Shown: piece by piece, positions 481 through 64,000 of the stretch
How the letters are laid out: every line of letters begins with the position of its first letter
How positions within the stretch are numbered: position 1 is the stretch's first letter
Assembly (NCBI GenBank): GCA_951406725.2
Contig: OX597832.1
Span: 6,572,001-6,636,000, forward strand
Length of the DNA: 64,000 bases
Reading direction: 5' to 3'
Origin: Octopus vulgaris
Taxonomy: Eukaryota
Made by a program: the position numbers and the translations under genes
The notes under the pieces: model-generated
What the model was told of the DNA's origin: nothing
Seen by the model: only the letters and a program-made list of their open reading frames with translations
Databases searched by the model: none

Positions 481-601
481 AGATTGAAAAGATACTCATC
501 AGCCTTAATTGATTTTCAAACCTTATCAGATTCTCATCAGAGGTGTCGACATTGAATTTGGTTTGAAAATCGATTTAGGCTGATGAGTATATTTTCAATC
601 C
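481..601. repeat. Foldback element, ~42-bp arms, hammerhead-bearing (Penelope-like pLTR remnant)
   Basis: agattgaaaagatactcatcagccttaattgattttcaaacc (481-522) vs ggtttgaaaatcgatttaggctgatgagtatattttcaatcc (560-601). Confidence 0.8.
503..543 (-). ncRNA. Minimal type I hammerhead ribozyme candidate
   Basis: Minus strand: CCU-CUGAUGA-GAAUC(UGAUAA)GGUUU-GAA-AAUCAAUU-A-AGG. Stem I CCU/AGG, stem II with wobbles, stem III palindromic in the other arm (AATCGATT), UUA cleavage triplet. Confidence 0.65.
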
Positions 602-619
602 TAGTTGTTCCCCACCATC

Positions 620-711
620 ATTTGACAATCAGCATTGATCTGTTTACAGCTCTTTCACTTAGCTGTTCCGTGTAGGAGACTGATAGAATAAGTACCAGGC
701 TTTAGCAAAAA

Positions 712-742
<31 letters not shown>

Positions 743-830
743 TAGTAAGTACTGGGATTAATTCAATCAAAACTCTTCAAGGTGGTGTCCCATCATAGCT
801 GCAATCCAGTGCCTGAGACATGTTAAAAAA
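620..830 (+). mobile_element. SINE family A, 3' part
   Basis: ttgacaa...gatagaataagtaccaggctt...ctggg...cttcaaggtggtg matches the 3' half of the copies at 10950 and 59158. Confidence 0.65.
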
Positions 831-1228
831 AAAAGAACCAATTGTCATTGGCCTTTAAGAGAGTTGGATATTTTCTGATATAGCAAAATAAACTTAGGAA
901 GAAAGAAAAAAAAAAGAGTAAAAAACCATCAGTAAAATAGAGAGACTACTCAATTACACTCTATCAGAGAGAGCTGCCTTGTCTGTCTTCTCTTCATTGC
1001 TTACTGGTTGAATACCCATGGCTGAATCTTTTGTCTCTGAATGAGATTATTATTAAATGCTCAAATGCCAGCCAAGAAAAGAGCATCAACAACAAATACT
1101 TTTTGTGTTTTTTACAAGTTCTCAAACTTAGATTGTTCAAATATGAAATTGTGACTGTGTAAGTTTCACTAGTACTAGACTTGAAATGAGATTTTACACA
1201 TACACGCATGTGTGGGTATGTAGGTATG

Positions 1229-1260
<32 letters not shown>

Positions 1261-1265
<5 letters not shown>

Positions 1266-1354
1266 ATTAAGGCTACCATTGGCTTCATGTTAGGATAAAT
1301 TTCTTGATATTTTGATAATTTTTTACATGAAACCAATGGTAACCTTAATACACA
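1261..1354. repeat. Foldback element (30-bp arms) next to a (TA)/(TG) microsatellite
   Basis: tgtgtattaaggctaccattggcttcatgt / acatgaaaccaatggtaaccttaatacaca; the arm contains GAAAC-CAATG-GTA, a hammerhead-like 3' half. Confidence 0.75.
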
Positions 1355-1532
1355 GATAAAGAAATTCTATCCACCAATGCAATGTTGAGCACCCATTCTT
1401 TTTGTTTGACATTTACACACACACACATTCTATATATCTTATACCTTTCTGAATTTCAAACTTCTAATTCTGCCAAATATTATCTCCCTTGTATTATCTG
1501 TTTGCTGGGGACCACCATTTGTGGATGTCATA

Positions 1533-1820
1533 ATCATCATTTAATGTTTTTCCTGCTGGCATGGGTTAAATGGTCTGATAAAAGCTGGCATGCCAGAGAG
1601 CTGCAGCAGGTTCCGATTGTCTGTTTTGGCATGGTTTCTATGGTTGGATGCTCTTCCTAATGCCAGCCACTTTACAAAATGTACTGGGTGCTTTTTATGT
1701 GGCAACCGCACAGGAGTTTATTATGTGATATCTGCACAGGCACTTTTTACCTGGCACCAGCATGGATGCCTTTTATATGTGACCAGCATGGGTGCTTTTT
1801 ACCTGGCACCAGCACCCGTG
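1533..1820 (-). mobile_element. RTE-type LINE 3' tail fragment
   Basis: atcatcatttaatg...gcatgggtt...ggatgctcttcctaatgcca...gggtgctttt, same family as 5352 and 39623. Confidence 0.6.
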
Positions 1821-2650
1821 TTTTACACACACACACACACACACGCGTGCGCGCACAGACAAAATGTTTGAGTTCTTTTGAGTTTAAAATAAACTGAAAA
1901 ATGTGTATGTAAAAGTGAGCTAGAATCTGTGATATGGTTTTGTATAGAGAGATGGTATAAGAGTAATTATCTAACACAATGAAAGAGGAGAAAATTGTGT
2001 GGGTGTAATGTCACTTAAGTTGATTCACTGTTACTTGTTCGTTCTTTCACTCATCCTCTGGCTATGTCACTCACTCACTCACCCACTATCTGTCTATCTA
2101 GCTCTCTTTGTATACATTCATTTTAATATATACTTAAGTGGATCTAAATTACTATTGAAATAATGAGAAATTGACAATCTTTATTCAAGTATCAGCTTTT
2201 TAAATATGTTGTTGTAATGAAGCTTGTCAATTTCACTTTATTGCCTGATTCATTTAATACAATAGCATATGTACTTGTTTGAATGTGTGTATGTGTGTAC
2301 CATTTCTACAGATCTAACATAGAAAGGACGACATGGGTTTTGTATATAGAGATAATGCTAGCGTGTTTTATTATAAACTTTTTATAAAACATCCTACATA
2401 AACAAAAAAAAGTTTTATAGTTTTATTTATTTATCAAGGTTAAGTTATCATTTCACTTATGTACTTTACAAAAGTTATTCCTTAAATTGTTTCAAATTAA
2501 TGTTATGGGCAAGTATTTTAAAAATATTTATTCATTGTACTGTTTCACATGATGAAGAAAGTATTTCAAATATAGTAAAGTGGTGCTAGTAAACAAAGAA
2601 TATTTTTATTAATTAGTGGTCAGATGCAACAAAGAATTTTTTTATTAATT

Positions 2651-2686
2651 AGTTGTCACAGTACCCCAAGTGGTACTGTGACAACT
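2651..2686. repeat. Perfect 15-bp hairpin beside a ~36-bp tandem duplication
   Basis: agttgtcacagtacc-ccaagt-ggtactgtgacaact; preceded by two near-copies of aacaaagaa...tttattaattagt (2592-2660). Confidence 0.85.
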
Positions 2687-4574: not shown

Positions 4575-4970
4575 TCTTTTATTCTTTTACTTGTTTCAAT
4601 CATTTGATTGCAGCCATGCTGCAGCACTGCCCCAAAAGGTTTAGTCAAAGAAATCGATCCCAGAACTTATTTTTTTAAGCCTGGTACTTATTCTATCATT
4701 CTCTTTTGCCAAACTGCTAAGCTATGGGGTCGTAAACACACCAACACCAGTTGTCAAGCAGTGTTGAGGGGACAAACACAGACACAAAGATATATACACA
4801 CAGATATATACATATATATGATGGGCTTCTTTCAGTTTCCGTCTACCAAATCTACTTACACAGTTTTGGTTGGCCTGAGGTTATAGTAGAAGACATTTGC
4901 CCAAGGTGTTACACAGTGGGACTGAACCCAGAACCTTGTGGTAGGGAAGCAAGCTTCTTATCACACAGCT
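4575..4970 (-). mobile_element. tRNA-derived SINE family A (CORE-like), near full length
   Basis: Reverse complement of the 10950/59158 copies: cttttacttgtttca...cttctttcagtttccgtctaccaaa...gggactgaaccc. Confidence 0.85.
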
Positions 4971-5351
4971 ACAGAAAAGAAAAAAAGTATATTTTTAATG
5001 GTGGTAGCTCTTATGATTATGAAATGTAGTAAAGATAAAAGGTGTGTATTCAGAATGTAGAATTCCTCGACGGAATTTTCTAAAAGCTTTGCTAAAAAAA
5101 AAAAATCCAGTATCAGTGATTGTCTTAAATTCCTGAACTAAAGATGTTTTTTCTTTCATTGCTGACTCAGTGTAATGACTGTAGAGGTTTAAGACTTTGA
5201 GTCAGATTTTAGAAGGAAGTGCAAGCCACTTAAGTCAGGAGGAAAGGATTGTACCCATGACTTCCACATACCCTCCAAGACTAGTGAGACACTATATAGG
5301 TAGAGAGAGACACATGTATTAGATAGGCTTAGCTGTAGGTGAATTTGTCGT

Positions 5352-5850
5352 ATCATCATCCTCATTTAACGTCCGCTTTCCATGCTAGCATGGGTTGGAC
5401 GGTTCAACTGGGGTCTGGGGAGCCCGAAAGCTGCACCAGTCCAGTCAGATCTGGCAGTGTTTCTACAGCTGGATGCCCTTCCTAACGCCAACAACTCCGA
5501 GAGTGTAGTGGGTGATTTTATGTGCCACCGACACAGGTGCCAGACGAGGCTGGCAAACGGCCACGCTCGGATGGTGTTTTTTTATGTGCCACCGACACAG
5601 GTGCCAGACGAGGCTGGCAGACGGCCACGCTCGGATGGTGTTTTTATGTGCCACCGACACAGGTGCCAGATGAGGCTGGCAAACGGCCACGATCGGATGG
5701 TGTTTGTTACGTGCCCACAGCACGGAGGCCAGTCGATGCGGTACTGGCTACGGCCACATTCGGATGGTTTTCTTGTGTGCCACGTGCCACCAGCACTGGT
5801 ACCACAAAGATACAAATTCCATTGATGTTCATCTATTTTGATTTGTTTTG
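5352..5850 (-). mobile_element. RTE-type LINE 3' UTR with internal ~63-bp tandem repeats and (ATG)n tail
   Basis: catcatc...tttaacgtccgctttccatgctagcatggg tail; 3-4 copies of tatgtgccaccgacacaggtgccagacgaggctggc... at ~5519, 5583, 5645. Confidence 0.75.
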
Positions 5851-5979
5851 ATTTGATTGATTTTGATATAAAAGTTACAATGGTAGATAAGTCACGTCCC
5901 TTCTGTGTATGTAATATTTTGACTTTGGCCTTTGACTTGTACACAAGTCATATGTCACTTTTGTGAATACCGTTTACAG

Positions 5980-6400
5980 AGCGACCTGCTATGCTTACCT
6001 TGGATTGTAGGGCGATCTGCTGTGCTTGAGGAGACCTATTGAGTCAAGTACATCAACATCAACATCAAAATAAAAATCGAATTGAAATTGTAGTTGTTTT
6101 ACCCATGCCGGTGGCACGTAAAAAGCACCATCCAAACGTGGCCAATGCCAGCGCCACCTTGACTGGCTTCAGTGCCAGTGGCACATAAAAAGCACCAACC
6201 GATCATGGCCGTTGCCAGCCTTGTCTGGCCCCTGTGCCGGTGGCACATAAAAACCACCCACTACATTCACAAAGTGGTTGGTGTTAGGAAGGGTATCCAG
6301 CTATAGAAACACTGCCAGATCTGACTGAAGCCTGGTACAGCCTCCTGGCTTCCCAGACCCCAGTCGAACCGTCCAACCCATGCTAGCATGGAAAACAGAC
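5980..6400 (+). mobile_element. RTE-type LINE 3' UTR, opposite orientation to 5352-5850
   Basis: ctgtgcttgaggagacc (also seen after the RT remnant at ~40855) through gttaggaagggtatccagc...cccatgctagcatggaaaacagac. Confidence 0.75.
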
Positions 6401-6897
6401 TTGCAATTAGTTGCATGACAGCAATAAAAACATTTAGCTGAGGTAATCTAAATCTCCTTGAAACATAGATCATTGCAGTTGTTCCTGTGATTTCTGCATG
6501 AAACAAACAGACCAACCACTGCTTTTAAATTGTCACACCTGATAGACTGACTTGCAATATCTTAGAGCGGTAAGCTTTCATCCAGCTGATAGAGAAGTTA
6601 TTTTGTACAAAACTATCAAAATGAAATAAACATTTACAAAATATATTTTAATGATCTTCATTAAAAAAAAAAATCGTTTATAATATCCACACAGTTGTTT
6701 CTTGAGATTATAGAATTATTGGAGAGAGTTAATCATCATTACCAGATCACTGATATAACACTAGCTGGGGCATGACAATTTTGAGTAAAATTATGTTTAC
6801 TTGTAATCATGGATAGCTATAATATTTTTGTTGTAATAGCCTCTAGTCATGTAGATGTCGACAACTCCCCCCACACATAATTCACATATGCGTGTGT

Positions 6898-6936
<39 letters not shown>

Positions 6937-13542: not shown

Positions 13543-15105
13543 TCTGTATATATATATAACCATGCCTAGAAGAAAAGTATCAAATTTGTCTACAATATCA
13601 AGGTAAATCAAAAGAATGTCTCTGTCCAGGGAAAGAGAGACAGCTGCAGAAAGGGAAGCATGCCAAGAAATGAACAGACTGTGTGCTACAAAAGTCAGAG
13701 CATCACAAAGTGGTTAACAGAGGTATGCACAATTGACAAGGAATAGGATCTCCACCGCAGAACGAAGAGCAGTTGCAACAGCTCAGAGAAGCAGTTCATT
13801 ATGCAAATGACACTAGAGTTTCCATTGGTGCAATGACAACTGAGTGCATACATTGTGAAGCCAAGAAGTAGTCTGGAGAGACACCCGCACTGAGCTGCAG
13901 CGGTGGAAAGGTTAAACTCTAGAGCCATTGAAGAAACTGTTGTCATCAACTGACCGAGATTCCAAGCACTTCCAAAACAAAATTAGTATAAATGCTGCAC
14001 TACAGATTACATCATTTGGAGCCAGAAGAGATATAACTGAACCAGGATTCATGCAAACTTTCAAGGTCCAAGGTCAGGTTTATCATCGGATTGGCGTTCT
14101 ATTACCTCTGTCCAATGGCTCACCAAAATTCCTCCAAATATATTTTATGGGTGATTCTCAACAAGAAGGGCAAGAGTGGTGCAAGAAATTTCCGGCATCA
14201 GGATGAATATTGTTGTGTCTCTGCAAAAGATGCTGCATAACAACAACCTGATCAGAAGCTTCAAGACTGCACTTGAAACAATTCTACTTGACTCCATCGA
14301 TTACAAGGTAGTTATCAGATCAGACAAGAAACCATCTGGTCAGCATGAAAGGATGTTTAATGTGCCAACAGTAAATGAAATAGCTGTGCTTCTGGTTGGG
14401 CAAGAACATGACAAGCGTGACATTGTCCTCCATCTCAGACACAGCACACTGATGAGGTTTAGCTTTGCAATATCTATCAACAAAGCACAAGGTCAATCTC
14501 TAAAGGTTGTAGGACTTAGCCTCCTTCAACCCTGCTTCTCACATGCTCAGCTGTATGTTGGATGTTCTCGAGTTGGAGATGAAAAAAACCTCTACATTCT
14601 CAGTGATAAACGTGGCAAGACAGAAAGCATAGTATATGAAGAAGCACTTATGTGAATAGTATGTCCATGTCATATACAGAAGTGTAAAACCATTGAGTGT
14701 TAAGGTATTACTATTTCACTTATAGTTTTCGACTGACCTGCGTGAATGTATATCTGTGTGTATAAAAGTGAAACAATAACATGATAAATTCGTTGTCTGT
14801 TTGTGTGTGTACTCTACACACGGCCTTTCATTGTTTATAATCTATACATGTTTTTTGGTTATGAAATAAGTTAGACAAAACGTGTTTTTGAATTATGTGT
14901 ATTTACTTTATATACATATACGAGTTGAAAACTTTCTTTTCGCATTTCACTTAACGTCTATGTTTCATGCTGGCATGAATTGCAGAGTTATTAGTGTAGA
15001 AAGTTGGTATCTCAGCTACTAGCAGATAAGACCTGCATAATCTAGACAGTGTTTTAAAATTTCATTGCTATCTTTAACTTGGGGAGTGCCAGGTATTGCT
15101 GCTAG
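13543..15105 (+). mobile_element. Internally deleted Helitron (RepHel remnant)
   Basis: 5' A|TC at 13543, 3' CTAG|T at 15102-15106. Coding relics: IGAMTTECIHCEAKK zinc finger, AALQITSFGA...FKVQGQVYHRIG...PKFLQIYF, RMFNVPTVNEIAV, and PIF1 C-terminus FAISINKAQGQSL...FSHAQLYVGCSRV. Confidence 0.88.
13562..14655 (+). pseudogene. Frameshifted Helitron RepHel ORF lacking the Rep nuclease and helicase core
   Basis: ATG at 13562 (MPRRK); ORFs 13928-14206 and 14176-14655 lie in different frames; stop codon in the zinc-finger segment. Confidence 0.85.
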
Positions 15106-28665: not shown

Positions 28666-28886
28666 ATGCTACTTACTCTTTCGCCTATCCATGAACAAAC
28701 ACATAACTCACACTTGCCCAGTCTAGAAAACTATACAATAAATAGAGGTGGGAGACACAGAACATAGTAGTAAATGTCAGTAGTAAGTGTGTCATTAACA
28801 TGCTGTCTTTGGATCCTTCCTATCCATCCATGGCGAACAAGTGCATTAAATTAGTGTTTTGTCCAAAGGAAGAAATATTTACCAAT

Positions 28887-29560
28887 TTGTGTTGCAAGAT
28901 GCCTGATGTGAAATTGTGTGTTGAAACAGAATGGAGTAAGTTTAGCAAGAACTCACACAAAAACAAAAAGTGTCACTGAAGTGGTCACAGATGTGTGACA
29001 AAAGATTCCTGGGCAATGGACATGAGTTAAAATAATATAAGAACAATAATAAATGAGTGAAGAAAAAAAATTTATTTGGCCAAAAAAAAAAAAAACGAAG
29101 GAAAAAGATCATCTTGAAATACAACAATTTCTGTTTCAACACACGGTTTCACATCAGGAATCTTGCAACACAAAATGACAAACGTAATGACTTAAGCCTC
29201 AGCCAGGCTAGCAAGACGTTAAAAAACACTATATTCTGTTGTCTTAAGATCATCACAATACAATAACTTCACTTCATAAAACTATGTGTCTCCTCCAGGA
29301 CTTACTCCTGGATGGTTACTAACAAGGTAGGAAAACTACAACTAACCAGAGGATATCTATCTTAGAAGAACAGAATGGAGTAAATGGAGCAAGAACACGC
29401 ATGAAAACAAAAAGTGTCGCTGAAAAGTCATGTGGGGCGAAAGATTTCTGGACAATGGACATGAATTGAAATAATAAAATAACAGTAATAAATAAATGAA
29501 GAAAAAATAGTGCGTGTGTTTATTTGACAAAACAAAAAAGGAAATTATCTCGAAATACAA
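28887..29560. repeat. ~195-bp direct duplication, first unit bracketed by a 45-bp inverted repeat
   Basis: IR ttgtgttgcaagatgcctgatgtgaaattgtgtgttgaaacagaa (28887-28931) / ttctgtttcaacacacggtttcacatcaggaatcttgcaacacaa (29129-29173); unit agaatggagtaa...gaaatacaaca at 28928 and 29372. Confidence 0.8.
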
Positions 29561-32500: not shown

Positions 32501-35500
32501 ATGAATTCATGTTCTTAAACTGATAGTTCTGTAAATATCATATTCTGTTAACCATTTTGCCTATACTCTTAATTTGAAATTCAGTATTTTTGTTGTTACC
32601 TTTGATCATAACTTGCAGCAAGGCTTGAGCAAATCATGATTATTTTTTACACTATTAAATTCCAGTTATGTAGAAGATTGGAAGAATAACTTTTGTACTG
32701 GAAACTGGTTACTTCAACACTTTTTAAATGTGTGTGATGGATGACTATTTAAAGTCATCGTTCTGATATTAAAGACAATGAGTTCAAACTTTTTCCTTGA
32801 TATAACATAATTTAGGCATATCAATCGTTTTGCCTTCTTCAAGCTAGTTAAAAATTATTTTATATTTTTACTTTACACATGTACTCATCAGCACAAAACC
32901 TCATACCTCAAGTGACATAAATCTCCAGTTATGCACAAGCATTTTAGCGATAAATCTATAACAATCACAAAAATCAAATATATTAAAAAATTCAACATAA
33001 ATAAACTGAAAATAATTGCAATAATTGTATTGATATTAATTTTGATTGCTTTGTAATTCCTCAGGACTGATATTAAGGATCCAGCTCCCTAGTACCATAG
33101 ATCTTAAATAGGATTATCAGAGAACATGTTAACATGTCAATGTCAGTTTAGTAGTCAATAAAAGTATTATTTTACTACTTTCATGTATGTGTGTGTCTCT
33201 GTTTAATATCAGCATCACATCTGATATAATATCAAGTATAACATCAAAATGGCACTGAATAAACCATATGTGTCTGTTAGTTTTCTGAGATTGGCATTAT
33301 TTTTTCTGCTTCTAGTTATAGGCACTTAATGTACTATATTGTATTTTTGCTTGCAAAAGAAGTATTTTGTGGCTAGCCATAGTACAATATTATCAGTTAG
33401 ACCAACTTAGCTTTAGGTTTCTCAATAATTACTACTTTAAAACAGTTGTGTTGCTAAGTAGTAAACTAAAAAAAATGATTCCGTGAAGATTAGTAAAGCA
33501 GATTATAAACTGATAAATTTGCTTCCTTTTAATTATAAATTCTAATATTATTTAATGTTTCAACATGGTGGACATAAATATTAAACATTTTTTCTATATC
33601 CATTTACTTAGTGTTTGTGAATAAGTTGTATCTGTCTTTCTGCTAGTTCAAATCTTGGAGTATTATGAGTTAATAATGCCAGCATATTTGTTGTCCATAT
33701 TATATTGTTGAATATTTACTGGAAATGATAATATAATAGTCTTTCATTATTGAGAATTGTAATTGGAAACATTATTCCTAGAACATGATTTAGAAATTTG
33801 AATCCTAACAGTACCCCTTTTATGTAACCAAATTTAACACCTATCTAAATGTCAAATTATAAGTGGCTAAGAATTATAAATGATAAAAAACCTTCTCTAG
33901 TTATAAAAGACAAGTGATTTGTGTTTTTCTGCATATACTCATCACTTATTTAGTTTCTAGCTGTTGATCAGAAACTGATGTTGACTATTAAAAACTATAA
34001 TGATATAATTAGTATAACATTCCTTAGTTCTGGAAAATCCCAAAGTATAGTAACCTTATGAAACTGTCTAAATTAACCCAGCCTGCATATGAATTCAGCT
34101 GGTAATAAGAGTGGCCAACTAAGTCAAGTTTAGGCATTATCAAGCCTAATAAAGGCTAAACCGAGCAATTATTTCAGAAAACTTATTGGATCACTTCTGT
34201 AACAAGTAACTGGTATCTTTGCCCTGAGTGGTTTTACTTGTATATTAGATACCCTTCAGAATTCACTAAAATTTATGAATCTAAGCTGAGCAGGATGTTT
34301 TATTACAAAGTAGTTGTTTATGTACTTGATTTGTTAGAAATCCTAGCTAGCAAACTGAAAAGGATATATCTTAACTCAATACTATTTACCATATAAAACT
34401 ACTAAATCTTGTAAAAATATATTTAAAATATTCATGTCAGGTTAATTTTATATAAAAGATTACATTCAAAGAAATTTTTGTATGAAATCCAACACGTCAC
34501 TATACAACCACCCTATAGATATTTTAAATTAACTATCACAATTCATTATATATTATGTCATAATGAAAAAGCTTTTTATTGATTATTATCTGCCTAAATT
34601 GAAACAACAATATTGATTATTTTATTTTAACTTAAAATACAATTGACTTCATTTATACAGGATTTATTTCTACCAAATGGAAATTTTACAAAAGGTTAGA
34701 CACTAGCAAACATAAATAAATATTTAACTTGACACTAATCTGTTATTCAAAGAGAAAATTTTTCTTATTGATTTCTTTTTGACAAGGTAAATTTTTCTAG
34801 GATCGGGTATAGCTGATTGAATTCAATCAGTGTATTATTGTTATATTGTTTATCAACACCTAAGATAGAGAACGCTACTTTCATTGTTGGTACTTATACT
34901 GTTTCCAAGTTGTCCAGCATTTTACTGTCTCAACTAACATTGCACATCTCAGTATCAATGAAATTTGGATCATAAACTGATTTGTATGAGATAAGAATTT
35001 ATGGTTAGCAAGTAAGGACATTGAAACCTGATGAAAGAAACAAAAATGGGGTAAACATCTGAATATCATTCCAACTTAAGAAATGGTAATTAGAGTTAAA
35101 ATAAGTGAAATTAATTTTGGTAAGGTAGTCTAGATCAGCAACTAGTTCACTTTGTCTTCCCCCCCCCCCCTCTCTCTCTCTCCTTCCCAACTTTCTGATC
35201 TATCTACAGCTTATACTGCTGCTCTCTTCCCACTTCTTATCACCTCTTCCTTCTTGAGCTATTTCTTTTACCTTGTCCTTTATACTGATGTTTATATCAT
35301 CAGCTACATTCACCTCCATGCCCATCGATAACCACTTGTCACTCTCTTTTTACACTCCAAATGCCTGATCCACCATCTCTATCTTCTTTCCAGCTACACC
35401 CATCAACTCCTAATGCTGGTAGCCATGTATCTTTTCTATAGCAAGACACCTGTACCTATCTCTCTATCATACTTTAGCCTCTCAGCGCCTGATATTATAT

Positions 35501-35529
35501 TGCCTCTCTCTAGGAGGCTTCTTATTTAA

Positions 35530-35740
35530 AGTTACATGGCAACCTTCACTTGTTCTGGTGTTACAAAAAAAAGTACACTATACACTCTGTGGAGTGGTTG
35601 GGTTTTGGGAGGGCAGCCAGCTGTGACCTCCCCCACTACCAAAACCAGCCATTGGAGCTCAATGTAGTCATCCAGCTTACTGGATCCTGTCAAACTGTCC
35701 AACCACACCGGCATGGAAGATGAATGCCAAATGATGATGA
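35530..35740 (+). mobile_element. RTE-type 3' tail, decayed
   Basis: gagtggttggg...gggcagccagctg...caaactgtccaacc...gcatggaag...atgatgatgatg. Confidence 0.55.
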
Positions 35741-36816
35741 TGTTGCCACATTCCGTTCCTAAAAACTCTACTATTGAAAGTGGTAGAAGCAAAATAACTG
35801 TGAAATACAGTATTGGATTACCTACTCGTGAATTGAAATCTACCACTTCTTAATGAGTTTTTGATCAGTATGTTTCATTCTACACTACTTCGATGTTTGT
35901 AACTATCCAGTATTAAACCGTCTGGGATTATTGCTTCTAATATACAAACATCTTATCCAGGAGGGATTTAATTCTCAGAAGCTTCATACCATGAAATTGG
36001 AGCTGTAAACTGGTTCTCAAGTACTTCCCCACAACACCTTTAATGCTTAGGAGATATTTATATTACTACTAAAAATCCACACTGCACTGATTAAGGTATA
36101 TTTCATTAAGACTATAAATTTCTTTTTTGACTCACTAAATAATAAAGCTTTAATAAAAGCAATACATTGTCTCTTACATTGCATCTTAAAAATGAAATAT
36201 GTATTGGTTTCCTACTACCTCATAGTATCACTTTTCCAATAAATAAAGTAGTTGGGACATGTTTTTAAGTGCCCTCTCATGTTTTTGTATGATTGTATTG
36301 TAATGCACTCACAAGTAGACATGCTTGGTTTATATCAACTAACATCAGCCTATAATTACTTTATAAACTAACCCACTTTATCATTGTATGTTGCTGCAAC
36401 AAGTCAGCATACTTATTCATAGCCAAGTATGTTTGAGTGCAATGTTCTATAGTGCATTGTAATTCTACAAAAGGAAATTTATCTTTCTATATTTGCTTAT
36501 GGTTTGCTAAAAGTGATGTAGGTATTCTTCAATTTTTCTCATGTAATATTAGTGACTTGTTTTCTAGCCATGTTTCTCTCAAGTTTATATATTTTTGCAA
36601 TTAAACAGTGAATTAATGCATGAAAAGTTTAAGCATCATTAACTACCAGCTCCCTTTTCCCTTCCTCTCTTATTGTTAAAAATTTGAACTAATTTCCAAA
36701 GAATAGTGTAGCAAAATTTATAAATTCTTTGTTTCAGCCCTAGCTTATTTCAAAATAGAAGAAATGCTCTAATATGTGTATGTTTGATTATATAGTTTAT
36801 TGGCATGCGTAAGAAC

Positions 36817-37245
36817 CACCATCATCATTTAACATTCACTTTTCCATGCTTGCATGGGTCAGATGGAATTTTGTTGAAGCAGATTTTTATATGGCTGGAT
36901 GCCATTCCTGTCACCAACCCTCACCCATTTCCAAACAAGGTGATATTTCCCATGGCCAAACATGTTTTTCCACAGAAGACTGCAATCAAACAACATCACT
37001 TGTGTGATGGTGTGCTTGTTTACAGCCGTCACATGATATCAAGATAAGGATGTACACATATGCATGCACATACACATGCACATACATCACACACACACAC
37101 CTTTCAGTTTGTCTACCAAATCCATTCCCAAGGTTTTAGCTTGCTCAGGATAATAATAGAAAGCACTTGTCCAAGGTGCTACACAGTGGGATTGAACTTG
37201 AGACAACATAGTTGGAAGCAGGCTTCTTAAACACACTACCAACCT
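36817..37245 (-). mobile_element. SINE family B, near full length
   Basis: RTE-like tail (catcatcatttaacattc...) at the left, family-A core and head (ttcagtttgtctaccaaatcc...gggattgaac) at the right. Confidence 0.7.
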
Positions 37246-37757
37246 GTGCTTTCATATGAATTAGTGATGAAAAATTATTTACAAGCTATAAAGTATAAAC
37301 TCATCTATGAAGTACAGAGAATTTCAGCATTTATAATGTTTACTTACATTTCTAAACTTTTACCCTTGATAGAAACATTAGAGCACCTGATTAAATGGTT
37401 TTTTTCTGAACCTTTACATTTCGAGCAAAAATTCTGCGAAGAAACACTTTGTCTGATATTTGGTCTGGGTTGATAAAATAAATCCAAAAAATTTCTTTGC
37501 TCCAATTTTACAAATCTATAACTTCATGCCAATGTTACAAAAATGTTATTTCAGCATTTAGTTTCTACAGCTCATCTGCAGCATTCCTGTGAAACATCAT
37601 ATTGATACACAGCCATGATTGATTAATTTTTAAAAAATTGTATCTTTGTAAAGTTAATCAATCACAACTTATCTCATTAAAAAATATTCCTTCCTGCTAA
37701 TTTAAATTAGTAATTGGGGCAATTTCTGTATTGATTTTGTATCTGCATGCCTCCCTA

Positions 37758-37790
<33 letters not shown>

Positions 37791-38344
37791 CACACACACA
37801 CACACACGTGTCTATCTGCGTGTGTGTGTGTGTGTGTCCCTTTCTGATAGTCATTTTAGAATATATTTTCACCAAGTGTCCTCTGCATGGCTAGCTTTCT
37901 TTTTGTTAAAGATGGTCGTCCTTTTTTTTTTTTTTTTTGCCTTTGGTGCAGCCATTCACACCTTGAATTTTAAGGTCTTACAAACTTTTATTGTTTCAAA
38001 TATCATAGTTGCCTTCTTTGTCACCATTACATGCGTACACCTTTTCTTCTAAAATCTATGTACAAATCTACACACGTTCTTATTGGCCTTGTTGCTCTCA
38101 TGATAACAGGTATCAGATAAAAATGTACTTTGGGTTTGCATATGAAGGTTACTTCTCAACAATTTCTAGATACTATCATCCCCTTTCATTTCTCCTACCA
38201 CATTGATGTCTAGTGCATAACAGCGGAACACGTTTGTATTTTTTTTGGTCCCAAACAATAACATCAGGTTAGTTATATTTGAATTTTATTACTGGTTTCA
38301 GTTTTAGGTTCCACTAATCTTTTGATCTATCAGTTACAATATCA

Positions 38345-38553
38345 ATTTCAGTCATTGGTCCGTGGCCATGCTGGGGCATTACCTTTAAGAGTTTGTCAAC
38401 AAATTGGCCCTAATACTGATTTCTCTCTTTTTTTTAGCTTGGTACTTATTCTGTCAGTCTCTTTTGTTGAACCACTAAGTTATAAGGATGTAAACAAATC
38501 AACACTGGTTGCTTAGCAGTGGTGTGAGCCAAACACAAAGGCACATGCATGCA

Positions 38554-38605
<52 letters not shown>

Positions 38606-38790
38606 CACTCACTCACTCACACACACACACACAGCTTCTTTCAGTTTCTATCAACCAAGTCCACTCACAAAGCTTAGGTTGGCCTAGGGCTGTAGTTAAA
38701 GACACTTTCCCAAGGTGCCATGCAGTGGGACTGAACCCAGAATCATGTGGTTGGGAAGCAAAACTTCTTACCACACAGTCACACCTGTAT
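38345..38790 (-). mobile_element. SINE family A
   Basis: ttcagtcattgg...ggccatgctggggc...cccaaggtgccatgcagtgggactgaaccc...ttaccacacag. Confidence 0.85.
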
Positions 38791-39552
38791 TTGTTGATAT
38801 TTTCTTCATCACTATGTTCTAGATTGCTCTGGCTACAGTATTATGTCTCAGGGAAAGGTAATATCTAGAGATACTTTGGTTTTGGTTCTGCATTGCCTAC
38901 GTTTCTTGTCAGCTGAGGATTTTTATCTTTTCTATATATTAAATTCTTGGAAAAGAATTTCTTGTATCTATATTACATAAAGGTGACCTTCAGTATTAGC
39001 TGCTCCAAACTTATTGGTGCTCCATAACAGTCTTTTAGTGTGGTTTGTTCTTTCTACAATTGGCCTTTTTTCATTTCAAGGCCCATGTGTACCTTTCTCA
39101 CTGAGCTATTGTAAGTGTTGCAATTATTATGCTAAGTTGGACTTTACCATGTTTCTTGGCAGGAGATCTATGTCAGTTTTTATTTCATGTCTCCTCTCAA
39201 GTTTATCAACTGATATATTGATTTTTATATTTTTGTGCTCACAAACTGAAGTGGGAGAGTTGCTAAGCTTTTTTCTCTCTCCTAGAAGTGATGCTCCAGT
39301 CTAACAATCTGGGTCTTGTTTGATGTTAATGCAGATTTAAGGCCACAGTTGCCCTCCATGCATGGGAAATATAATTTGTCTACATTCCCACTGATGTTGA
39401 AATTTCCAGTAATCCTGAATATTTCTATCTAGGTTAAGTTATTTTAATTGCTAGTTCCGGATAAATGTACTTGTTAAGATAGATACTAGTAAGGTGTTGT
39501 GAAATAATGTGTATATACACATATACATTTGCATGCGTGTGTGCATTTTATA

Positions 39553-39596
<44 letters not shown>

Positions 39597-39622
39597 AATT
39601 ATACATACATGTATATTTATAT

Positions 39623-40010
39623 TCATCATCATCATCATCATTTAACGTCCGTTTTCCATGCTTGAAATTGGTTGGACGGTTCAACCGGGGTCTGGGAAGC
39701 CAGGAGGCCGCACCAGACTCCAGTCTGATCTGGTAGTGTTTCTACAGCTGGATGCCCTTCCTAACGCCAACCATTCCATGAGTATAGTGGGTGCTTTTTA
39801 CATATCACCAGCACAGGGGCTAGAGGAGGCTGGCAACAGCCACGATCGGTTGGTGCTTTTTACGTACCACTGGCACGGAAGCCAGCCAAGGTGGCGCTGG
39901 CATTGACATGCCAATGGCACGGGTATCACAACTACAATTTCCATTTGATTTTGATTTTAATGTTGATGTACTTGACTCAATAGGTCTCCTCAAGCACGGC
40001 AGTCGTCCCC
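39623..40010 (-). mobile_element. RTE-type LINE 3' UTR with (ATG)n tail
   Basis: (CAT)n tttaacgtccgttttccatg...ggatgcccttcctaacgcc...ggtctcctcaagcac. Confidence 0.8.
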
Positions 40011-40019
40011 CACGATCCA

Positions 40020-40960
40020 AGGTAAGCACAGCACACATGTATACCAGAACTAGAGTAGAAGTTCCAGGTATGGAAACAAGGTCTAAAATCGAAGGGCCTT
40101 AAAGTTAACCTAGCAAAAACTAAAATCTTAGTAAGTAAGCAAGCAGACAAATCACAAATCGTTGTGGACACATAAAAGGTGTAGCAACATCAGAGGAAGG
40201 TTAACAGGGAAACTAGCTTTTGTATGTGGAAGAAGCGCAGGTACAATAAATGTTGAAAATGTGCAGAAAATAGACTTCATCAACTACCAGTGGCGAAAGC
40301 TAGAGGTAGTAGATAGCTTCCATTATCTAGGTGACCAAGTTAGTAGTGGAGGTGGATGCTCCAAGAGCGTAGCTGTGAGAATAAGATTAGGTTGGGCAAA
40401 GTTCAGAGAGCTCCTACCTCTGCTGGTAACAAAGGACCTCTCTCTCAGAGTAAAAGGCTGATTGGATGATGCCTGTGTACAAACTGCTATACTACACGGC
40501 AGTGAAACATGGACTGTAACAGCCGAGGACATGCGTAGGCTTGAAAGAAATGAAGCCAGTATGCTTCGCTGGATGTGCAATGTCAGTGTGCATGTTCGAC
40601 AGAGTGTAAGCATCTTGAGAGAAAAGTTAGACATAAGAGGCATCAGATGTGGTGTGCAAGAGAGATGACTGTACTAGTGTGGTCATGTGATACATATGGA
40701 TGAGGACAGCTATGTAAAGAAGTGCCAATCTCTAACTGTGGAGGGAACCTGTGGTAGAGGTCAGCCAAGGAAGACATGGGATGAACTGGTGAAGCACGAT
40801 CTTTGAGCCCCATGGAGGCAATGACTAGTGACTGAGACCTTTGGCGATATGTTGTACTTGAGAAGACCTGTCAAACCAAGTGAAATCATAGTCATGGCTG
40901 ATGGTGGTGTCACGTAACTGGCACCTGTGCTGGTGGCAGGTTAAGAGCACCTTTCAAGCA
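40020..40960 (+). mobile_element. RTE-clade LINE: RT C-terminal region plus start of 3' UTR, disrupted
   Basis: KVNLAKTK, LEVVDSFHYLGD, RIRLGWAKFRELLPLL, LHGSETW...LERNEASMLRWM, GHV..M, GRGQPRKTW motifs with stops and frameshifts. Confidence 0.9.
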
Positions 40961-41162
40961 TTGAGATTCAGATGAAAACCTTGTAGAATGCTACTCATTT
41001 TACACCTTCGATGTATGATAATTACACATCCTACCAATGTATTACAGATGTAAAAATGTGTTGAAACAATTGTAGTGATTTTAAAGAAAGAATGTTGTTC
41101 ATTCCATTTTCTATCAGTTGTCTGTTTATATAATATGTACTTATATAAGGTATATATATATA

Positions 41163-41668
41163 CTAGCAGTATCGCCCGGCGTTGCTCGGGTTTGTAAGGG
41201 AAATAACTATATAAGCATTTTTAGAGAGTTACTTCCCTTATAAATTCGGGCTTTCTTAGCCATTTTTGTTTTGGTGTCTTCAAGCCATGAAGTCGTTGTT
41301 CTAAAAGAACGCTGGTTTCCTTCACAATGCATTACGACGTTGATTTCTTTACACTCCCTTCCCCACAGCTTCATGAGGGAGGGAAGGGGGAGAAGCAAAC
41401 AGGTGCAGCTGTGAGCGTGGACGCCAACTCCGCCGCCATCGACATACGATGCATTTTATGCATTAAAATGGAATAAAAAATTATGTTAAATTATTTTTAA
41501 AATCGTAGACTCATCGTTGACGCGCGCTAATAGTCAGACGGGCTCGATATGAATCACGACTATAAGATACCCGAATTTGGTTAAACTGCACCGCAAAATG
41601 TGGGAGGAGTTAGGAATCTAAATCGAAGGGGACAGACACTCACACAACTAGAGTTTTATATATATAGA
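41163..41668 (-). mobile_element. Non-autonomous Helitron, 506 bp, young-looking
   Basis: Minus strand A|TCTATATATATAAAA...TGTCTGTC...CCCGAGCAACGCCGGG hairpin...CTAG|T; CpG-rich relative to flanks. Confidence 0.88.
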
Positions 41669-42272
41669 TATGCACTCATTCCTACTCAATCCACCTTTAT
41701 TGCTTTCTGACTTTGTCTCTGTGTGTCTCTCTCACTCCCTCTCTCTCTCATTTCCTGATATTACTTTCCCCCTTTCTCTCCTGTCTTATCTTTTCTGCAT
41801 GTAACACTTTACCTTCCAATGTATAATGTGGGGTAGTGCTGCTTCCCCCTCACCTGCTATCCTATTACTGTGACACACTCTCTCTCTCTCTCCCTCCTTC
41901 TTTTACACTAATCTTTGACATTGCTCTTCCCCTTCCCTTCTATTCTATTTTCTGTTATTACTCGGCTCTCTCCTAATACTGTTTCCTCTTTTATTCTCTC
42001 CTCTACAATGTTCCTACTACAATAAATCTGCTCCATCCATCACATTACAAGCTACTGGATAACCTCACCAGTACTAGTACCAAAATATGTGGTTGGTAAA
42101 TCAAGTCACACAGCAACAATGTAGTTTGAGGGGGATCAAGTAAGAATATTATTGACAGCGACTTCAGAGTTTTTGCCAGTTAGGCTGAGGTTAATCTAGC
42201 ATTATATAGTCTGCTTTGGAGTATAGCCTTGGCTTCATAAAGAAATGTCAAAACCACTGTCAGTAATATTCT

Positions 42273-44168: not shown

Positions 44169-44580
44169 ATAGACAAGGAATACTATTTGAAACTTTATAA
44201 ATGATTGAGAAAAATTGTTGGTTGTCTTTTTAAATGGTTTTATTACTTGGAAAAAGATGGTATGTTTAATAACTTAATTAAAGAGCTTGGATACCTCATA
44301 ATAGAGTGATGAGGACATATCATTGATAAAGTTGCAAATGCCAATGAAAGGACTCTCATAAATTTACTGATTGATAGCCTGATCGACTGATTAGTCAAGC
44401 AATCAAATAATTAATTTGTCAGCTAGCTGATCAATAATAAGAATAAAAAGAAATACAGTAGAACTTGTACAGTTTTTTTTTATTAGCAAAATGACCCTTC
44501 CAGGATATAACATAAGTTTTTCCAAGTCTTAATCTTGTTGTTTGTATTTCTGTTTACACAATCTTTCAATTAAGTTGATC

Positions 44581-44632
44581 TCTAGTTATCATCAGGTACT
44601 CTGATGACAACTAGATATGAAACGAGTCATAT
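44581..44632 (+). ncRNA. Decayed hammerhead motif within a short foldback
   Basis: tctagttatcatcag-gtact-CTGATGAcaactaga hairpin, continuing tat-GAAAC-GA-GTC; stems I and II are damaged. Confidence 0.4.
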
Positions 44633-44859
44633 TCAGGAAATAAAGGATCTGTGACAGAGCTTCAGAAAAAATCCATTTAATTAAAACATTGTATAAACTA
44701 AAACACACAAGATAAGATTAATAGTCCAACAAAGTGTAATTATTATAGCTCATACCATATAATTAATACTTGCTTACAAACTACACTTTAATTCAGCACA
44801 TTCAATGATTAGCATTTTGCCAGTTAACATTTTCATAAGCTAAAGCAGGTAGTTGTATC

Positions 44860-49889: not shown

Positions 49890-50580
49890 TGTGTGAGTAG
49901 ATTTGGTAGGCAGAAACTGAATGAAGCCTGTCGTGTATGTATATATATATATATATATATATATGTTATTTAGAGATAGTAGTCCCCATCATCACACCAT
50001 ATAAAAGAATCTTAATTTAATACTTACTACTCATTTCTCTGCTACACGTGTTTCTTGAGGTTCTTTTATGGTTCCTTAAGCACGGAATGTTTTTCAGGAA
50101 CCTTTCTTAAAATGTAACCCCAATCATCAGTTACATTTTAAGAAATGTTCCTGTAAAGCACTGCGTGCTTAAGGAATCGTGAAAGAACCTCAAGAAACAC
50201 GCGTAGCAGTGAAATGAGTAGTAAGTATTAAATTAAATTAAAATTCTTTTATATGGTGTGATGATGGGGACTACTATCTCTAAATAACATATGTATTTCT
50301 TCATTGAGAATAATCTGAATCGCCGTGATGCCAGAATTTTTATTCCCTAATAAATAAAATGAAATAATATATATATATATATATGTATGTGTTTGTTCCC
50401 CCACTATCGCTTGACAACCGATGTTGATGCATTTACATCCTCATAACTTAGCAGTTTGGCAAAAGAGACTGATAAAATAAGTACTAGGCTTACAAAGAAT
50501 AAGTCCTGGGGCCAGTTTGTTTGACTAAAGGTGGCATTCCAGCATGGTCACAGTCAAATGACTGAAACAAGAAAAGGAAG
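49890..50580 (+). mobile_element. SINE family A interrupted in its (TA)n by a foldback element
   Basis: gtgagtagatttggtagg...gaagcctgtcg before 49940; tttgttccccc...cgcttgacaaccg...gactgaaacaag resumes at ~50390. Confidence 0.8.
49961..50366. mobile_element. Foldback element, ~158-bp arms plus ~75-bp unpaired tail, hammerhead motifs (Penelope-like)
   Basis: atatgttatttagagatagtagtcccc...aaaatgtaac / gttacatttt...ggggactactatctctaaataacatat; minus-strand CTGATGA at the axis (50124-50130); (TA)n on both sides. Confidence 0.85.
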
Positions 50581-58031: not shown

Positions 58032-58075
<44 letters not shown>

Positions 58076-59157: not shown

Positions 59158-59565
59158 AGGCGCAGGAGTGGCTGTGTGGTAAGTAGTTTGCCAACCAACC
59201 ACATGGTTCTGGGTTCAGTCCCACTGCGTGGCATCTTGGGCAAGTGTCTTCTGCTATAGCCCCGGGCCGACCAATGCCTTGTGAGTGGATTTGGTAGATG
59301 GAAACTGAAAGAAGCCTGTCGTATATATATATGTATATATGTGTGTATATGTGTTTGAGTGTCTGTGTTTGTCCCCCTAGCATTGCTTGACAACCGATGC
59401 TGGTGTGTTTACCTCCCCGTCACTTAGCGGTTCGGCAAAATAGACCGATAGAATAAGTACTGGGCTTACAAAGAATAAGTCCCGGGGTCAATTTGCTCAA
59501 CTAAAGGCGGTGCTCCAGCATGGCCGCAGTCAAATGACTGAAACAAGTAAAAGAGTAAAAGAGAA
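59158..59565 (+). mobile_element. SINE family A, full length, best-preserved copy
   Basis: aggcgcaggagtggctgtgtggtaag...gtaaaagagtaaaagag; nearly identical to 10950-11342. Confidence 0.92.
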
Positions 59566-59616
59566 AGAGAATTGTTAATGGCATCATATTCAAAAGAGTA
59601 AAAAAAAATCGTTTTA

Positions 59617-59660
<44 letters not shown>

Positions 59661-60188
59661 TTTGAATTGTGATTAAATAAAAGGAAATGACTTTTAATCA
59701 TCAGCATACTCTTGTCTTTAAATGCTACCACTACACACACACACATATGCATGCACACACATGATGGACTTTCACTCAGTTTCTGTCTACAAAATTCCAA
59801 AGGCTACAGTAGATGCTAGATTGTGATTTCAGGCTTAAACTCAAAATCACATGGTTGTGAATGGAGCTTCTTAACCACATGAACCTGCCTGCACCTATGT
59901 ATCTACTTGTTATGTACACACACACACATACATATATATAACGAATTATTAATGAAGGATTCTCAATCTGGACAAAATACTTCTTAAGCTCTCTGCTAAT
60001 ACAAATACACCAGGCTAACAAAAGGTTTTTTGATTGGTATAGAACTGCAGGTAATCCTAAGGCGAAATCTATAGTTGAAGTCCATCACCAGTCAACTTTG
60101 TAAATCCATGGTTTCATTCCTCCTCTGTTAATATGTTATGTTTCCACAGATGGATGTAGAAGAAAAGGTATAAATAATGTGTTTTACA

Positions 60189-60436
60189 TATTTATTTGTG
60201 CATTGTAGACTTTCAGCTGTTTCTGATATGCATTTTATGCACATTCATAACTTCATTTACTCAATCGGTTGATTGGTCAAATGAAAAAGTTGAATGACCT
60301 TAACAAATTCTATCATCTTCAGATTGCATTTAAGGTCATTTCAATCAATCAGTCAACCAGTTGAGTAAACAGATTTATAAATGCACTCGATATTCATATC
60401 AGAAACGGCTGTAAGTCTATGATGCACAAATAAATA
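60189..60436. mobile_element. Foldback element, ~110-bp diverged arms, hammerhead-like motifs
   Basis: tatttatttgtgcattgtagactttcagctgtttctgatatg / catatcagaaacggctgtaagtctatgatgcacaaataaata; inner aatgaccttaa/ttaaggtcatt; minus-strand CTGAAGA in the loop (60316-60322). Confidence 0.8.
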
Positions 60437-61134
60437 AATACAAAAAGCCCATTATTTGTGCATTTTCTTTGTGTGTGTGTGTGCACGCGTATCTGTCCTT
60501 CTGTCTGTACAATCAAAGTAAGAAGAATAAAAAATTAATCATTGTAAATGAAATGAAAGTTTTCCCCACCTAAGAAAGTTGTAACAAGAAATAGATAGAA
60601 ACTGTATAAAAAGCCCATGTACTACTGAGAAAACTCTTAAGTGTTTCTGCACGTGTGTAATTTAATTAATTGTTATTAATTTGTGCTAGATTATTGTTAT
60701 TAATAGTTGAAGGCATAATTTATTTCAGTTTAATGTCTATTTATTTGTTGTTATCACACTCTCTTCTTTAATTACAAATGAAATAGTTACTAACATGTCA
60801 GCTCAGAAATTTCTGAACATATCAGAGGTAAAAGATAAAATCAATAAAAAAATATCTAAACCTATTGTTGTACTGTGTTTGATGATGGCCGTGTGATTCT
60901 CAAAATGTATGGAAATGGAAAATAAGAGCATGAAGAACTCAGCAATGCAACTTAACCAGACTAAGAGAAATAATGAGGTATACATTCACAATGTACCACT
61001 TAGAGAAAAAAAAAAAAAATAAATAAATACTTAAAATACGGGATGATTTTAATGAGTGAACTTAACTCAAAACATAGAATTGAAAAGGTCATTACCCTGA
61101 TATTCTTGGTAGTACGACACAACTTGGATGTGAT

Positions 61135-61495
61135 CAGGCATGACTTTATGGTAAGAAATTTACTTCTCGAACACATGGTTCTGGGTTCATTCCCACTACA
61201 TGGCACTTTGGGTAAGTGTCTTCTTCTATAGTCATGGGCCAACCAAATCCGTGTGAGTGGATTTGGTAGACAGAAACTGAAAGAAGCTCATCATGTGTGT
61301 GTGTGTCTGTCTGTCTGTCTCCCTTCCACTACACTTGACAACTGGTGTTGTGTTGGTAAAAGAGACTGATAGAATAAATACCAGGCTTAAAATGAAAATA
61401 GGCACTTTGAGCAATTTGTTCGACTAAAGTTCTTCAAAGCTGTGCCCCAGCATGGTTGCAATCTAATGACTGAAATAAGTAAAAGATAAAAAGAT
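61135..61495 (+). mobile_element. SINE family A, diverged
   Basis: caggcatgactttatggtaag...gggttcattccc...gactgaaataagtaaaagataaaaga. Confidence 0.8.
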
Positions 61496-62117
61496 AACTA
61501 AAAGTAACCAGAGATACAATAAAAATAAAGCAAAAATATACCAGAAGGAAGCTATTAACATTCAAAATTTACCTGAAAGCCAACACACCTTATTTTATAT
61601 TCCTAAACAGAACAGAGGAAGAGGTCTCGTACAGCCATAGATTGTCTTCAAAATCTCTACAATTTGACAAGCTCTGTACAAAAGAATGACACCCTGTTAC
61701 AAGCTGTCATATCAGAAAACAAGTTGCATTCATTGCTCATAGGAACTCAAATAGTTACTCTAACAAATCACTTTAAAAACCACAAACACACTTTAAACAC
61801 AATAGAAAAAGTTAATACTTGAAGACTTGTTACGTAAACCATTCAAATGAAATCCATATGACAGTGTTCTAAAGATGTATCCTTGTTTTGTGACAAAAGT
61901 ATCAAGAGCAATTTGAAAAAAGGCTTATAAATAAATGTATAGCTTTAGTGTACAGAATGGCTTCAGAAGGATAGAGTATGCATATGTACAAGATAACAGT
62001 AGTGATTATAGTTACTAATTACATCAAATTTCATACTTCAGTTCTATGTTTAAGAGATGAGGAATTATGTACATTATTTACAATTGACGGATATTTGTCC
62101 TCATCTTGTTTGTTGTT

Positions 62118-62163
62118 AACACAACATTTCGGCTGATATACCCTCCAGCCTTCATCAGGTGTC
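62118..62163 (-). ncRNA. Minimal type I hammerhead ribozyme candidate
   Basis: GACAC-CUGAUGA-A-GGCUG(GAGGGUAUAU)CAGCC-GAA-AUGU-U-GUGUU. Stem I 5 bp, stem II 5 bp, loopless stem III (ancestral ACGU inferred from the two arms), GUU site. Confidence 0.7.
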
Positions 62164-62435
62164 TTGGGGAAATTTCGAACCTGGGTTCTCATTCCTAAGG
62201 TATTTTTTGATGCTGTTGTTTTTGTTGTTGATATTATTATTATTATTATTATTATTCAGGTCACTGCCTGGAATTGAACTTGGAATCTTGGGGTTAAGGG
62301 CGAGGGCTACTAACCCCAAGATTCTGGGTTCAATTCCAGGCTGTGACCTGAATAATAATTAACAATAATAATAATAATAACAACAACGTTGAAAAATACC
62401 TTAGGAATGAGAACCCAGGTTCGAAATTTCTCCAA

Positions 62436-62481
62436 GACACCTGATGAAGGCTGGAGGGTATATCAGCCAAAACATTGTGTT
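62436..62481 (+). ncRNA. Mirror hammerhead copy with core G12-to-A mutation
   Basis: gacac-CTGATGA-a-ggctg...cagcc-AAAA-cattgtgtt: GAAA is lost at 62469. Confidence 0.55.
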
Positions 62482-64000
62482 AACAACAAACAAGATGAGG
62501 ACAAATATCTGTCAATTGTAAATAATGTAAACAATTTAAATTTCATCCCAGAAGGATGGAAGGAAATGATTCTGCTAAATAATAATAATAATGCTTTCCA
62601 CTATAGGCATAAGGACTAAAAATTTGTGTGGAGGGGCTAGTTAATCACATGGCAACATTTGAACCCAGAACATAAAGCTGGAAGAAATACTACGAAGCAT
62701 TTTGTCTAGTGCACTAATGATTCTGCCAGCTCACTGCTTTTATAATAATAATAACAGCAGCAATATATATATAAGGGTCTATGACTTCAAGAACCAAGAG
62801 TCATTGATATATGAACTCTGAGCCATACAGCTTTGATTGCTCATGGTCAGTCACCCTGAAAATAGATTTTTTATTTTTTGCTTTCATTTGGAGATTTTTA
62901 TTTTTTGCCTTTGTTTGGAGCTCCTAATCCACACCACTATTGATTAAGAGCATTAAGTTCCAGTTTTTGTTACTCAAAGCTGCGGCAACTGAATACTTAA
63001 GTGACATATATTTTCACCTCATCAGCCATGCTTAAATGAATTCAGTCCATACTCTAATATATTCAGACCATACTATTATTATTTTATTGCTATCAAAGCC
63101 AGGAAAAAAATTAGCTAAACTTTATAATCCACTGTACTGTTCAATCTAGCATTGAGTGAGTTTATTCTGTCTGCTAATTGTAAAAGTATAAATTCTTTCT
63201 AAATATCTTTGAAACAATTTTATCATCAACTTTCAGTTGTAATTGTATAAAAAAAGACGTATGCTGATAATCCTACATATTGTAAAAATATAAGAAAAGT
63301 TATCAGGTTTACTTATTACTATTTTGGTAAACAGAAACTTATGGGAAGTTTATATTTAATTTAGCTTAAACCTTCTTTTAATTGAAATAGAGTTGGAGAT
63401 GTTGGCATATTTGTAAATGAGCACATACAAAGAGACATCTTTGTTTTATATACATTCACATTTCTATTAGAATTGGCTTATACATATGACTCATAAAACC
63501 AGTAGATTTCTATGTAACCAACTACTAACGCATCATTCTAAGTTGTACAACTCTTCACTCTTAAGGGTACACACACACACACACACACACAAAGTGAGAG
63601 TGAAGGAGAGAAGTTGAATAACTCTTGATTTGTTTTTGTTTTTTTACTATAAAACTGTATTTACTGTCTGTTGCCTAAACACTATTGAACGTTTTTCTCT
63701 TTGGCTGTTGGAAATGTGTAAGGTGATGGGATGCATTATAACATTACTTGTGTTTCTGACAGCTTTTACTTCACACTCCAGTAAACATTTATAGCAATAG
63801 TTAGGATATAAATTATCTTTTGTTAAGCGAGTGTCTTGCTCTCAAGTTACCATTACGTGAAGAACTTGAAATCAATTTTTGGTTTCATTTTCTATGACTC
63901 ATCTGAAGTCTTATTGACTCGGATTGTGATAATTATTTATGTTTTTTTGAAGCTATGCTTTTTTAAATTTGAGATTAGTGTTAGGGTAAAGGAATTCCAA

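Follow-up and report, generated by a model that had tools for sequence, protein, structure and literature searches.

Endonuclease-positive (EN+) Penelope-like elements (PLEs) leave a published insertion footprint: their 5' side carries a second, inverted and 5'-truncated copy, and only one side has a tail (PMC8557442, PMC3846280). Hammerhead pairs on opposite strands have been reported (PMC4209133). The protein of an anole PLE, predicted to form a dimer, cuts and extends both strands and starts reverse transcription at two sites, which delimit the tail (PMC11167929). Here we analyzed a 64-kb stretch of the 2.8-Gb Octopus vulgaris genome (the window), rich in AT and microsatellites, which holds six short palindromic inserts labelled A (482), B (1261), C (44601), D (50012), E (60182) and F (62063). 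We propose, with a probability of roughly 65%, that such palindromes are head-to-head 5'-truncated PLE ends formed from two cDNAs primed on the two strands of one break. The architecture itself is already known for PLEs, and the families described here are new members.

Like published EN+ PLE insertions, the inserts show 5' truncation, partial tandems and an inverted 5'-truncated copy in head-to-head arrangement, as well as a tail at one end, a duplication of 8-10 bp around the whole insert and a bias towards simple repeats (PMC8557442, PMC3846280, PMC8969392). Their strict pairing of one long with one short end and their non-nested arms were counted here; the 2013 paper proposes self-priming instead (PMC3846280). 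As in the anole Poseidon element PAc (Frangieh et al. 2024, PMC11167929), the hammerhead lies upstream of two fixed 3' ends and, in family F, an open frame runs through the hammerhead region; in contrast to PAc, the pseudo-long terminal repeat (pLTR) of F opens with a tRNA-like head and an AAT run. Inverted copies are left unexplained in the accessible text of the PAc paper. Families A, D and E fit the animal non-LTR (non-long terminal repeat) retrozymes, short hammerhead repeats without coding capacity for which a non-autonomous origin from PLEs has been proposed (PMC7229834; bioRxiv 10.64898/2026.07.22.740005). Retrozymes, however, are tandem arrays by definition, whereas most copies here are single or inverted; tandem units were seen as one partial dimer of the ~270-nt unit of A (locus L278), and none was seen in D or E. 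An octopus repeat paper lists 31 recently active Penelope-like families, and neither "hammerhead" nor "ribozyme" occurs in its accessible text (PMC13282606). No paper among those accessible (few subscription journals, without supplements or Repbase) states twin priming for Penelope or a tRNA-headed or polymerase III pLTR.

Arm orientation, end pairing and nesting

Genome searches returned at least 416 candidates for A, 1063 for B, 731 for D, 145 for E and 3203 for F, all of these being lower bounds, and one candidate for C, which is single-copy. Geometry was scored on de-duplicated loci, most of which were top-scoring search matches, so the proportions do not reflect random sampling. As background we used 80 unselected 10-kb stretches (800 kb), 20 flanking the window and 60 spread across the chromosomes.

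The orientation of the arms was read directly: all 91 inverted pairs of F, D, E and B were head-to-head and none was tail-to-tail, and A was head-to-head only in its window copy. Equally direct is the presence of two fixed 3' end points in each family, which set a tail of ~37 nt in F, 60 in B, 66 in D, ~190 in E and 40 in a young PLE of the same genome, against the 30-40 nt published for EN+ PLEs. A long end was joined to a short one in 75 of the 77 pairs classifiable at both ends (in 14 further pairs an end was unclassifiable), and both 3' ends also appeared as loose ends in RNA reads. The duplication around family F was observed as a flank repeat of at least 8 nt enclosing the whole insert in 29/41 cases, against 26/1640 mismatched flank pairs; in the window copies of A-E a target-site duplication was not discernible.

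The first-pass annotation of the window had listed six foldbacks. All six exist, at 482-600, 1261-1354, 49957-50296, 60160-60469 and 62063-62536 together with the element at 44601, and the corresponding inserts are composed as follows.

442..600, family A insert: minus arm 552-442 (family positions 160-273) head-to-head with plus arm 555-600 (185-230); predicted hammerhead core at 540 (-)
1261..1416, family B insert: minus arm 1323-1261 (53-116, short end) and plus arm 1306-1416 (65-178, long end); predicted cut of this copy after 1341
44529..44721, element C: inner 14-bp hairpin 44582-44595 / 44601-44614 with CTGATGA on both strands; GAAACGAGTC at 44619-44628; 51-nt outer arms 76% identical
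49957..50360, family D insert, within a TA repeat: minus arm 50130-49957 (307-485, short end) and plus arm 50130-50360 (319-549, long end); predicted hammerhead with long stem II, predicted cut after 50205
59973..60469, family E insert: minus arm 60328-59973 (5-368, long end) and plus arm 60339-60469 (47-177, short end); predicted hammerhead with long stem II at the family 5' end, predicted cut after 60413 in the plus arm
62039..62541, family F insert: minus arm to 62039 (long end, 299) and plus arm 62292-62541 (23-271, short end)
62158 (-) and 62441 (+), predicted hammerhead cores of family F, both with point changes
62292..62350 (+), tRNA-like head of the F copy, 5'-truncated; B-box-like GGTTCAATTCC at 62327-62337
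62026..62034 (+) and 62538..62546 (+), left and right copies of the 9-nt target-site duplication AAATTTCAT of the F palindrome

Family D is ~790 nt long. The families have no common primary sequence, as had been noted earlier; the sole matches are three of 18-24 nt (E 0.02-0.09). Element C, for which neither the genome search nor the examined loci yielded relatives, is likely an old relic of the same kind.

We propose that a GIY-YIG endonuclease would make a staggered cut, and that reverse transcription, primed by each 3'-OH, would begin at one or the other of two fixed sites lying downstream of the hammerhead. The two cDNAs would extend toward the 5' end of the RNA, end either there or at variable points before it, and join centrally; the hammerhead would be a passenger, read through uncut at this step. 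Such twin priming fits the in vitro findings on the anole PLE (PMC11167929). A fuller version, which we advance tentatively and at slightly less than even odds, has a dimeric enzyme prime both break strands with one cDNA per start site, and also has family F, as an autonomous Penelope element whose pLTR took up a tRNA-type internal promoter, shed tens of thousands of palindromic copies that resemble short interspersed nuclear elements (SINEs). If true, the "inverted pLTR" and the "tail" would be two sides of one twin-priming step, the missing half of Penelope transposition.

A cDNA that folds back on itself yields a second arm contained in the first. Among the 75 pairs, 37 were non-nested, meaning that on the 5' side the short-end arm extends beyond its long-end partner by 10 nt or more, while 30 were nested and 8 equal; the non-nested pairs favour two target-primed cDNAs over simple fold-back. 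In family F, a complete short arm with a truncated long arm occurred 9 times and the reverse 7 times. The window copy of D is non-nested by 12 nt, and at L375 the arm bearing the open reading frame (ORF) carries the short end, its 105-nt inverted partner the long one. The alternative with the same PLE identity is that one cDNA folds back and copies itself, endonuclease trimming then setting the second end and a later central deletion adding asymmetry. This draws on the self-priming proposed by Arkhipova et al. 2013 (PMC3846280), on 13 of 41 F pairs in which both arms are complete and meet at a small 5' hairpin, on the nesting of all three inverted copies found in the young PLE, and on variants shared between arms in three families. 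It would, however, require trimming of either arm or a one-sided deletion in about half of the events, the arms at L375 speak against it, and the non-nested pairs show no excess divergence (0.056 vs 0.056 in F). We consider it unlikely. The counts of end pairing and of non-nested arms bear on the unsettled integration step of PLEs, and favour twin priming over the published self-priming.

The sharing of non-CpG variants exceeded that between random arms in F (0.116 vs 0.043), D (0.258 vs 0.092) and E (0.166 vs 0.099). As a means of telling one RNA template from two, shared variants were rejected, since CpG decay dominates.

Several observations weigh against the proposed explanation. Arms of family B share variants no more than random arms do (0.065 vs 0.079), and none of the 28 search copies of A is a palindrome. 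The unselected 800 kb gave just 7 head-to-head pairs of these families. Inverted copies made up 3 of 20 in the young autonomous PLE and all three were nested; as this set was picked for intact ORFs, it is no evidence for or against twin priming. Non-nested arms could also result from post-insertion deletions at the palindrome centre. Finally, no contiguous PLE ORF accompanies A, D, E or element C in the examined loci, whose flanks span just 1.5-5 kb, and the ORF link of E is one non-contiguous locus (L117).

Coding sequences linked to families F and B

Families F and B are, with little doubt, the 3' ends of PLEs. The link is seen directly for both. F starts ~35 nt past the stop of an ORF with reverse transcriptase (RT) and GIY-YIG-type parts in five loci (L369, L371, L373, L374 and L375), and F sequence was present in 10 of the 11 loci picked by an RT found head-to-head with an F copy. 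The linked RT matches PF00078 (E 1.4e-10). The endonuclease piece went unrecognised by Pfam; it aligns to the GIY-YIG region of a 781-aa protein (E 3e-5), and one of its homologues is named GIY-YIG endonuclease. The same upstream untranslated region (UTR) precedes three more F copies (L011, L030, L264) among 14 solo copies with an intact head, and RNA reads from a related organism cross the junction between F and this UTR. From its motifs we provisionally take F to be a "Poseidon-type" PLE. Its insertions number 10-12 in the unselected 800 kb, which extrapolates to ~35,000-42,000 genome-wide, half of them palindromic (6 of 12 F records there were head-to-head).

In 20 loci, family B follows a decayed ORF that belongs to a second PLE type, with the RT part in L293. 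The identity of this ORF comes from tblastn matches to unnamed homologues and from motifs that we presume to be PLE motifs; Pfam recognised neither the ORF nor its homologues. For A, D and E, PLE identity is probable, and they are likely non-autonomous derivatives that use the same enzymes. PLE fragments beside D in L048 and L059 were rejected as an ORF link, being on the opposite strand and unshared. At L050, the flank upstream of a D copy resembles the 3' end of a coding sequence, possibly a caspase-like one.

Within the window, no PLE ORF was found by tblastn or among ORFs of at least 110 aa. Genome-wide, 6136 candidates came from a Pfam search for GIY-YIG; among them were many intact 781-aa frames that have both RT and GIY-YIG domains, along with tandem pLTRs, from which we conclude that PLEs are abundant and recently active in this genome. 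The best named protein relative of one element here is from Octopus sinensis. The young family mentioned above (L212-L231, e.g. L220:3837-6179, minus strand) has an intact 781-aa RT and GIY-YIG frame, a ~500-nt pLTR and a 40-nt tail; it sits mostly in TA repeats, and most copies are 97-99% alike. Its hammerhead has a U3-A8-like core, TTGATAA, with a helix I of just 1 bp in the copy checked.

The F pLTR begins with a tRNA-like head followed by an AAT run (e.g. L369:3658-3753), and most complete short F copies begin at the first base of this head. We call its motifs A-box-like and B-box-like on what we take to be the consensus; the A-box-like part is missing from the window copy and present in the family majority sequence. 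ARAGORN at default settings called no tRNA in 8 F loci, and at a lowered threshold it picked up the head of several copies along with numerous spurious sites; Rfam gave no tRNA match for the head. Family F as an independent tRNA-derived SINE was rejected, because the head belongs to the pLTR of the autonomous element. RNA reads carried F on both strands (8023 of 12.9 million in one run from a related organism), a count that does not in itself demonstrate a promoter of its own.

The same links bear on whether the palindromes are miniature inverted-repeat transposable elements (MITEs), relics of other DNA transposons or hairpins that arose by chance. The inverted repeats and the duplication flanking them would suit MITEs, and a published octopus annotation lists MITE families; most of the 73 foldbacks in the background set lack the motif and are unclassified, and element C is single-copy. 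Against this stand the variable 5' truncation with fixed 3' ends, the many solo non-palindromic copies, and the RT and GIY-YIG ORFs to which F and B are directly linked. For F and B the truncation pattern and the ORF link refute a MITE or DNA-transposon origin, and overall we regard it as very improbable. A MITE layout, with fixed terminal inverted repeats in all copies, was not found, and the suggestion that several unrelated retroelement families with hammerhead motifs share one palindrome-making route holds. Insertions of this kind explain part of the short hairpins of the genome, which could be mis-annotated as MITEs, SINEs or microRNA precursors.

Hammerhead motifs and the palindrome axes

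The majority sequences of A, B, D, E and F have the layout of a minimal type I hammerhead (core CUGANGA or its U3-A8 variant, GAAA and UH), with a helix I of 3-8 bp and a helix II of 5-8 bp, and are predicted to be minimal type I ribozymes. Helix III is palindromic or near-palindromic in all five; the self-complementary stem III described earlier recurs in the majority sequences as ACGT, ACACGTGT, ACAGCTGT, AATCAATT (AATCGATT in some copies) and ACCAATGGT. Short helix I, an extra base before helix II, a palindromic helix III suited to dimers and a U3-A8 variant are all shared with known minimal hammerheads, as are many unrelated families per genome and dual motifs 100-700 bp apart on opposite strands. 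Unlike these, D and E have helix II regions of 69 and 92 nt, as predicted from sequence. The family B core, TTGAAAA, is a U3-A8 variant, a type described previously (PMC4209133).

In the window, the reported CTGANGA positions hold; the motif lies at 540 (-), 44601 (+), 44595 (-), 50130 (-), 60322 (-), 62158 (-) and 62441 (+), the last two inside the arms of the 62063 element. The 1261 element had been read as the 3' half of a hammerhead; this holds for the window copy, which is cut into the motif, but family B carries the whole layout. The motif at 44601 is at best a relic, with stems I and II of just 1 bp each. Rfam gave no hammerhead above threshold in the window or the families, its matches being generic microRNA hairpins; the best hammerhead score was HH9 in one family A copy (13.1 bits, E 3; cut-off 52). 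A strict structural scan, too stringent for decayed copies, gave 2 sites within the window and 7 across 400 kb; five shuffles yielded 0-2.

In the 800-kb background, CTGANGA lay within 50 bp of the axis in 13 of 73 foldbacks, compared with 4.5% of random positions (p 2e-5), in line with the enrichment that had been anticipated. Cores read outward in 15 cases and inward in 6. A GAAA-palindrome search alone did not discriminate (12 outward vs 8 inward). The estimate of one ribozyme palindrome per 10 kb was too high: foldbacks of any kind occur once per 11 kb, and with the motif in 13-15 of the 73 the density is ~1 per 55-60 kb, which is a minimum, as cores that have decayed escape detection. Motif-bearing palindromes are denser in the window than on average.

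The first-pass annotation explained these motifs by a hammerhead cut that sets the RNA 5' end, with the cDNA folding back at or near the cut. The roughly fourfold enrichment near axes, the start of family E at stem I and two D arms that begin exactly at the core would agree with this. Type I hammerheads cut 3' of the entire core, so arms starting at the cut would be core-free. Only 2 of 182 arm starts, however, fell within 5 nt of the predicted cut and 162 lay upstream; in the five family copies of the window the cut is ~25-170 nt from the axis, and the starts of F arms are concentrated at the beginning of the tRNA-like head, ~200 nt away. Nor is the motif at the axis as a family rule, arm starts being spread along each element. 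Axes lie near CTGANGA mainly because the arms are short 5'-truncated ends that contain the motif and because the 5' end of E coincides with stem I; 13 of 38 E arms start at helix I because it is the family's own 5' end. Read ends did not accumulate at the predicted cut in three RNA-seq runs of a related organism, libraries that are weak for this purpose, and insertion of the anole PLE in vitro was unaffected by hammerhead mutants (PMC11167929). A ribozyme cut as the origin of the palindromes is thus the least credible of the readings considered, and we set it aside.

The 5' end of family E (window 60312-60328) coincides with hammerhead helix I. Among 29 E copies picked by the tail alone, ~12 begin in the first 25 nt and the others are spread. 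The Drosophila virilis Penelope intron ends at helix I (PMC4209133), and one possible explanation is that the 5' end of E represents a splice junction.

Other repeats in the window and the examined loci

A seventh repeat, at 28878-29182, has a 50-nt inverted end piece and recurs in 15 examined sequences, in some of them head-to-head (L332); it is possibly another PLE-type family. A weak 84-nt foldback at 2159-2242 has no motif and no relatives among the examined loci. At 14155-14655, a 166-aa open stretch, presumably a Helitron fragment, weakly matches a helicase C-terminal domain (UvrD_C_2, E 0.008, below cut-off). At 5361-6410, a repeat that is very common and contains tandem units forms a large inverted arrangement (815 matches, 120 examined sequences). 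Hammerhead-like palindromes outside A-F were found at L232:3687-3802, L258:44-216, L260:9707-10000, L142:5092-5753 and L155:505-631.

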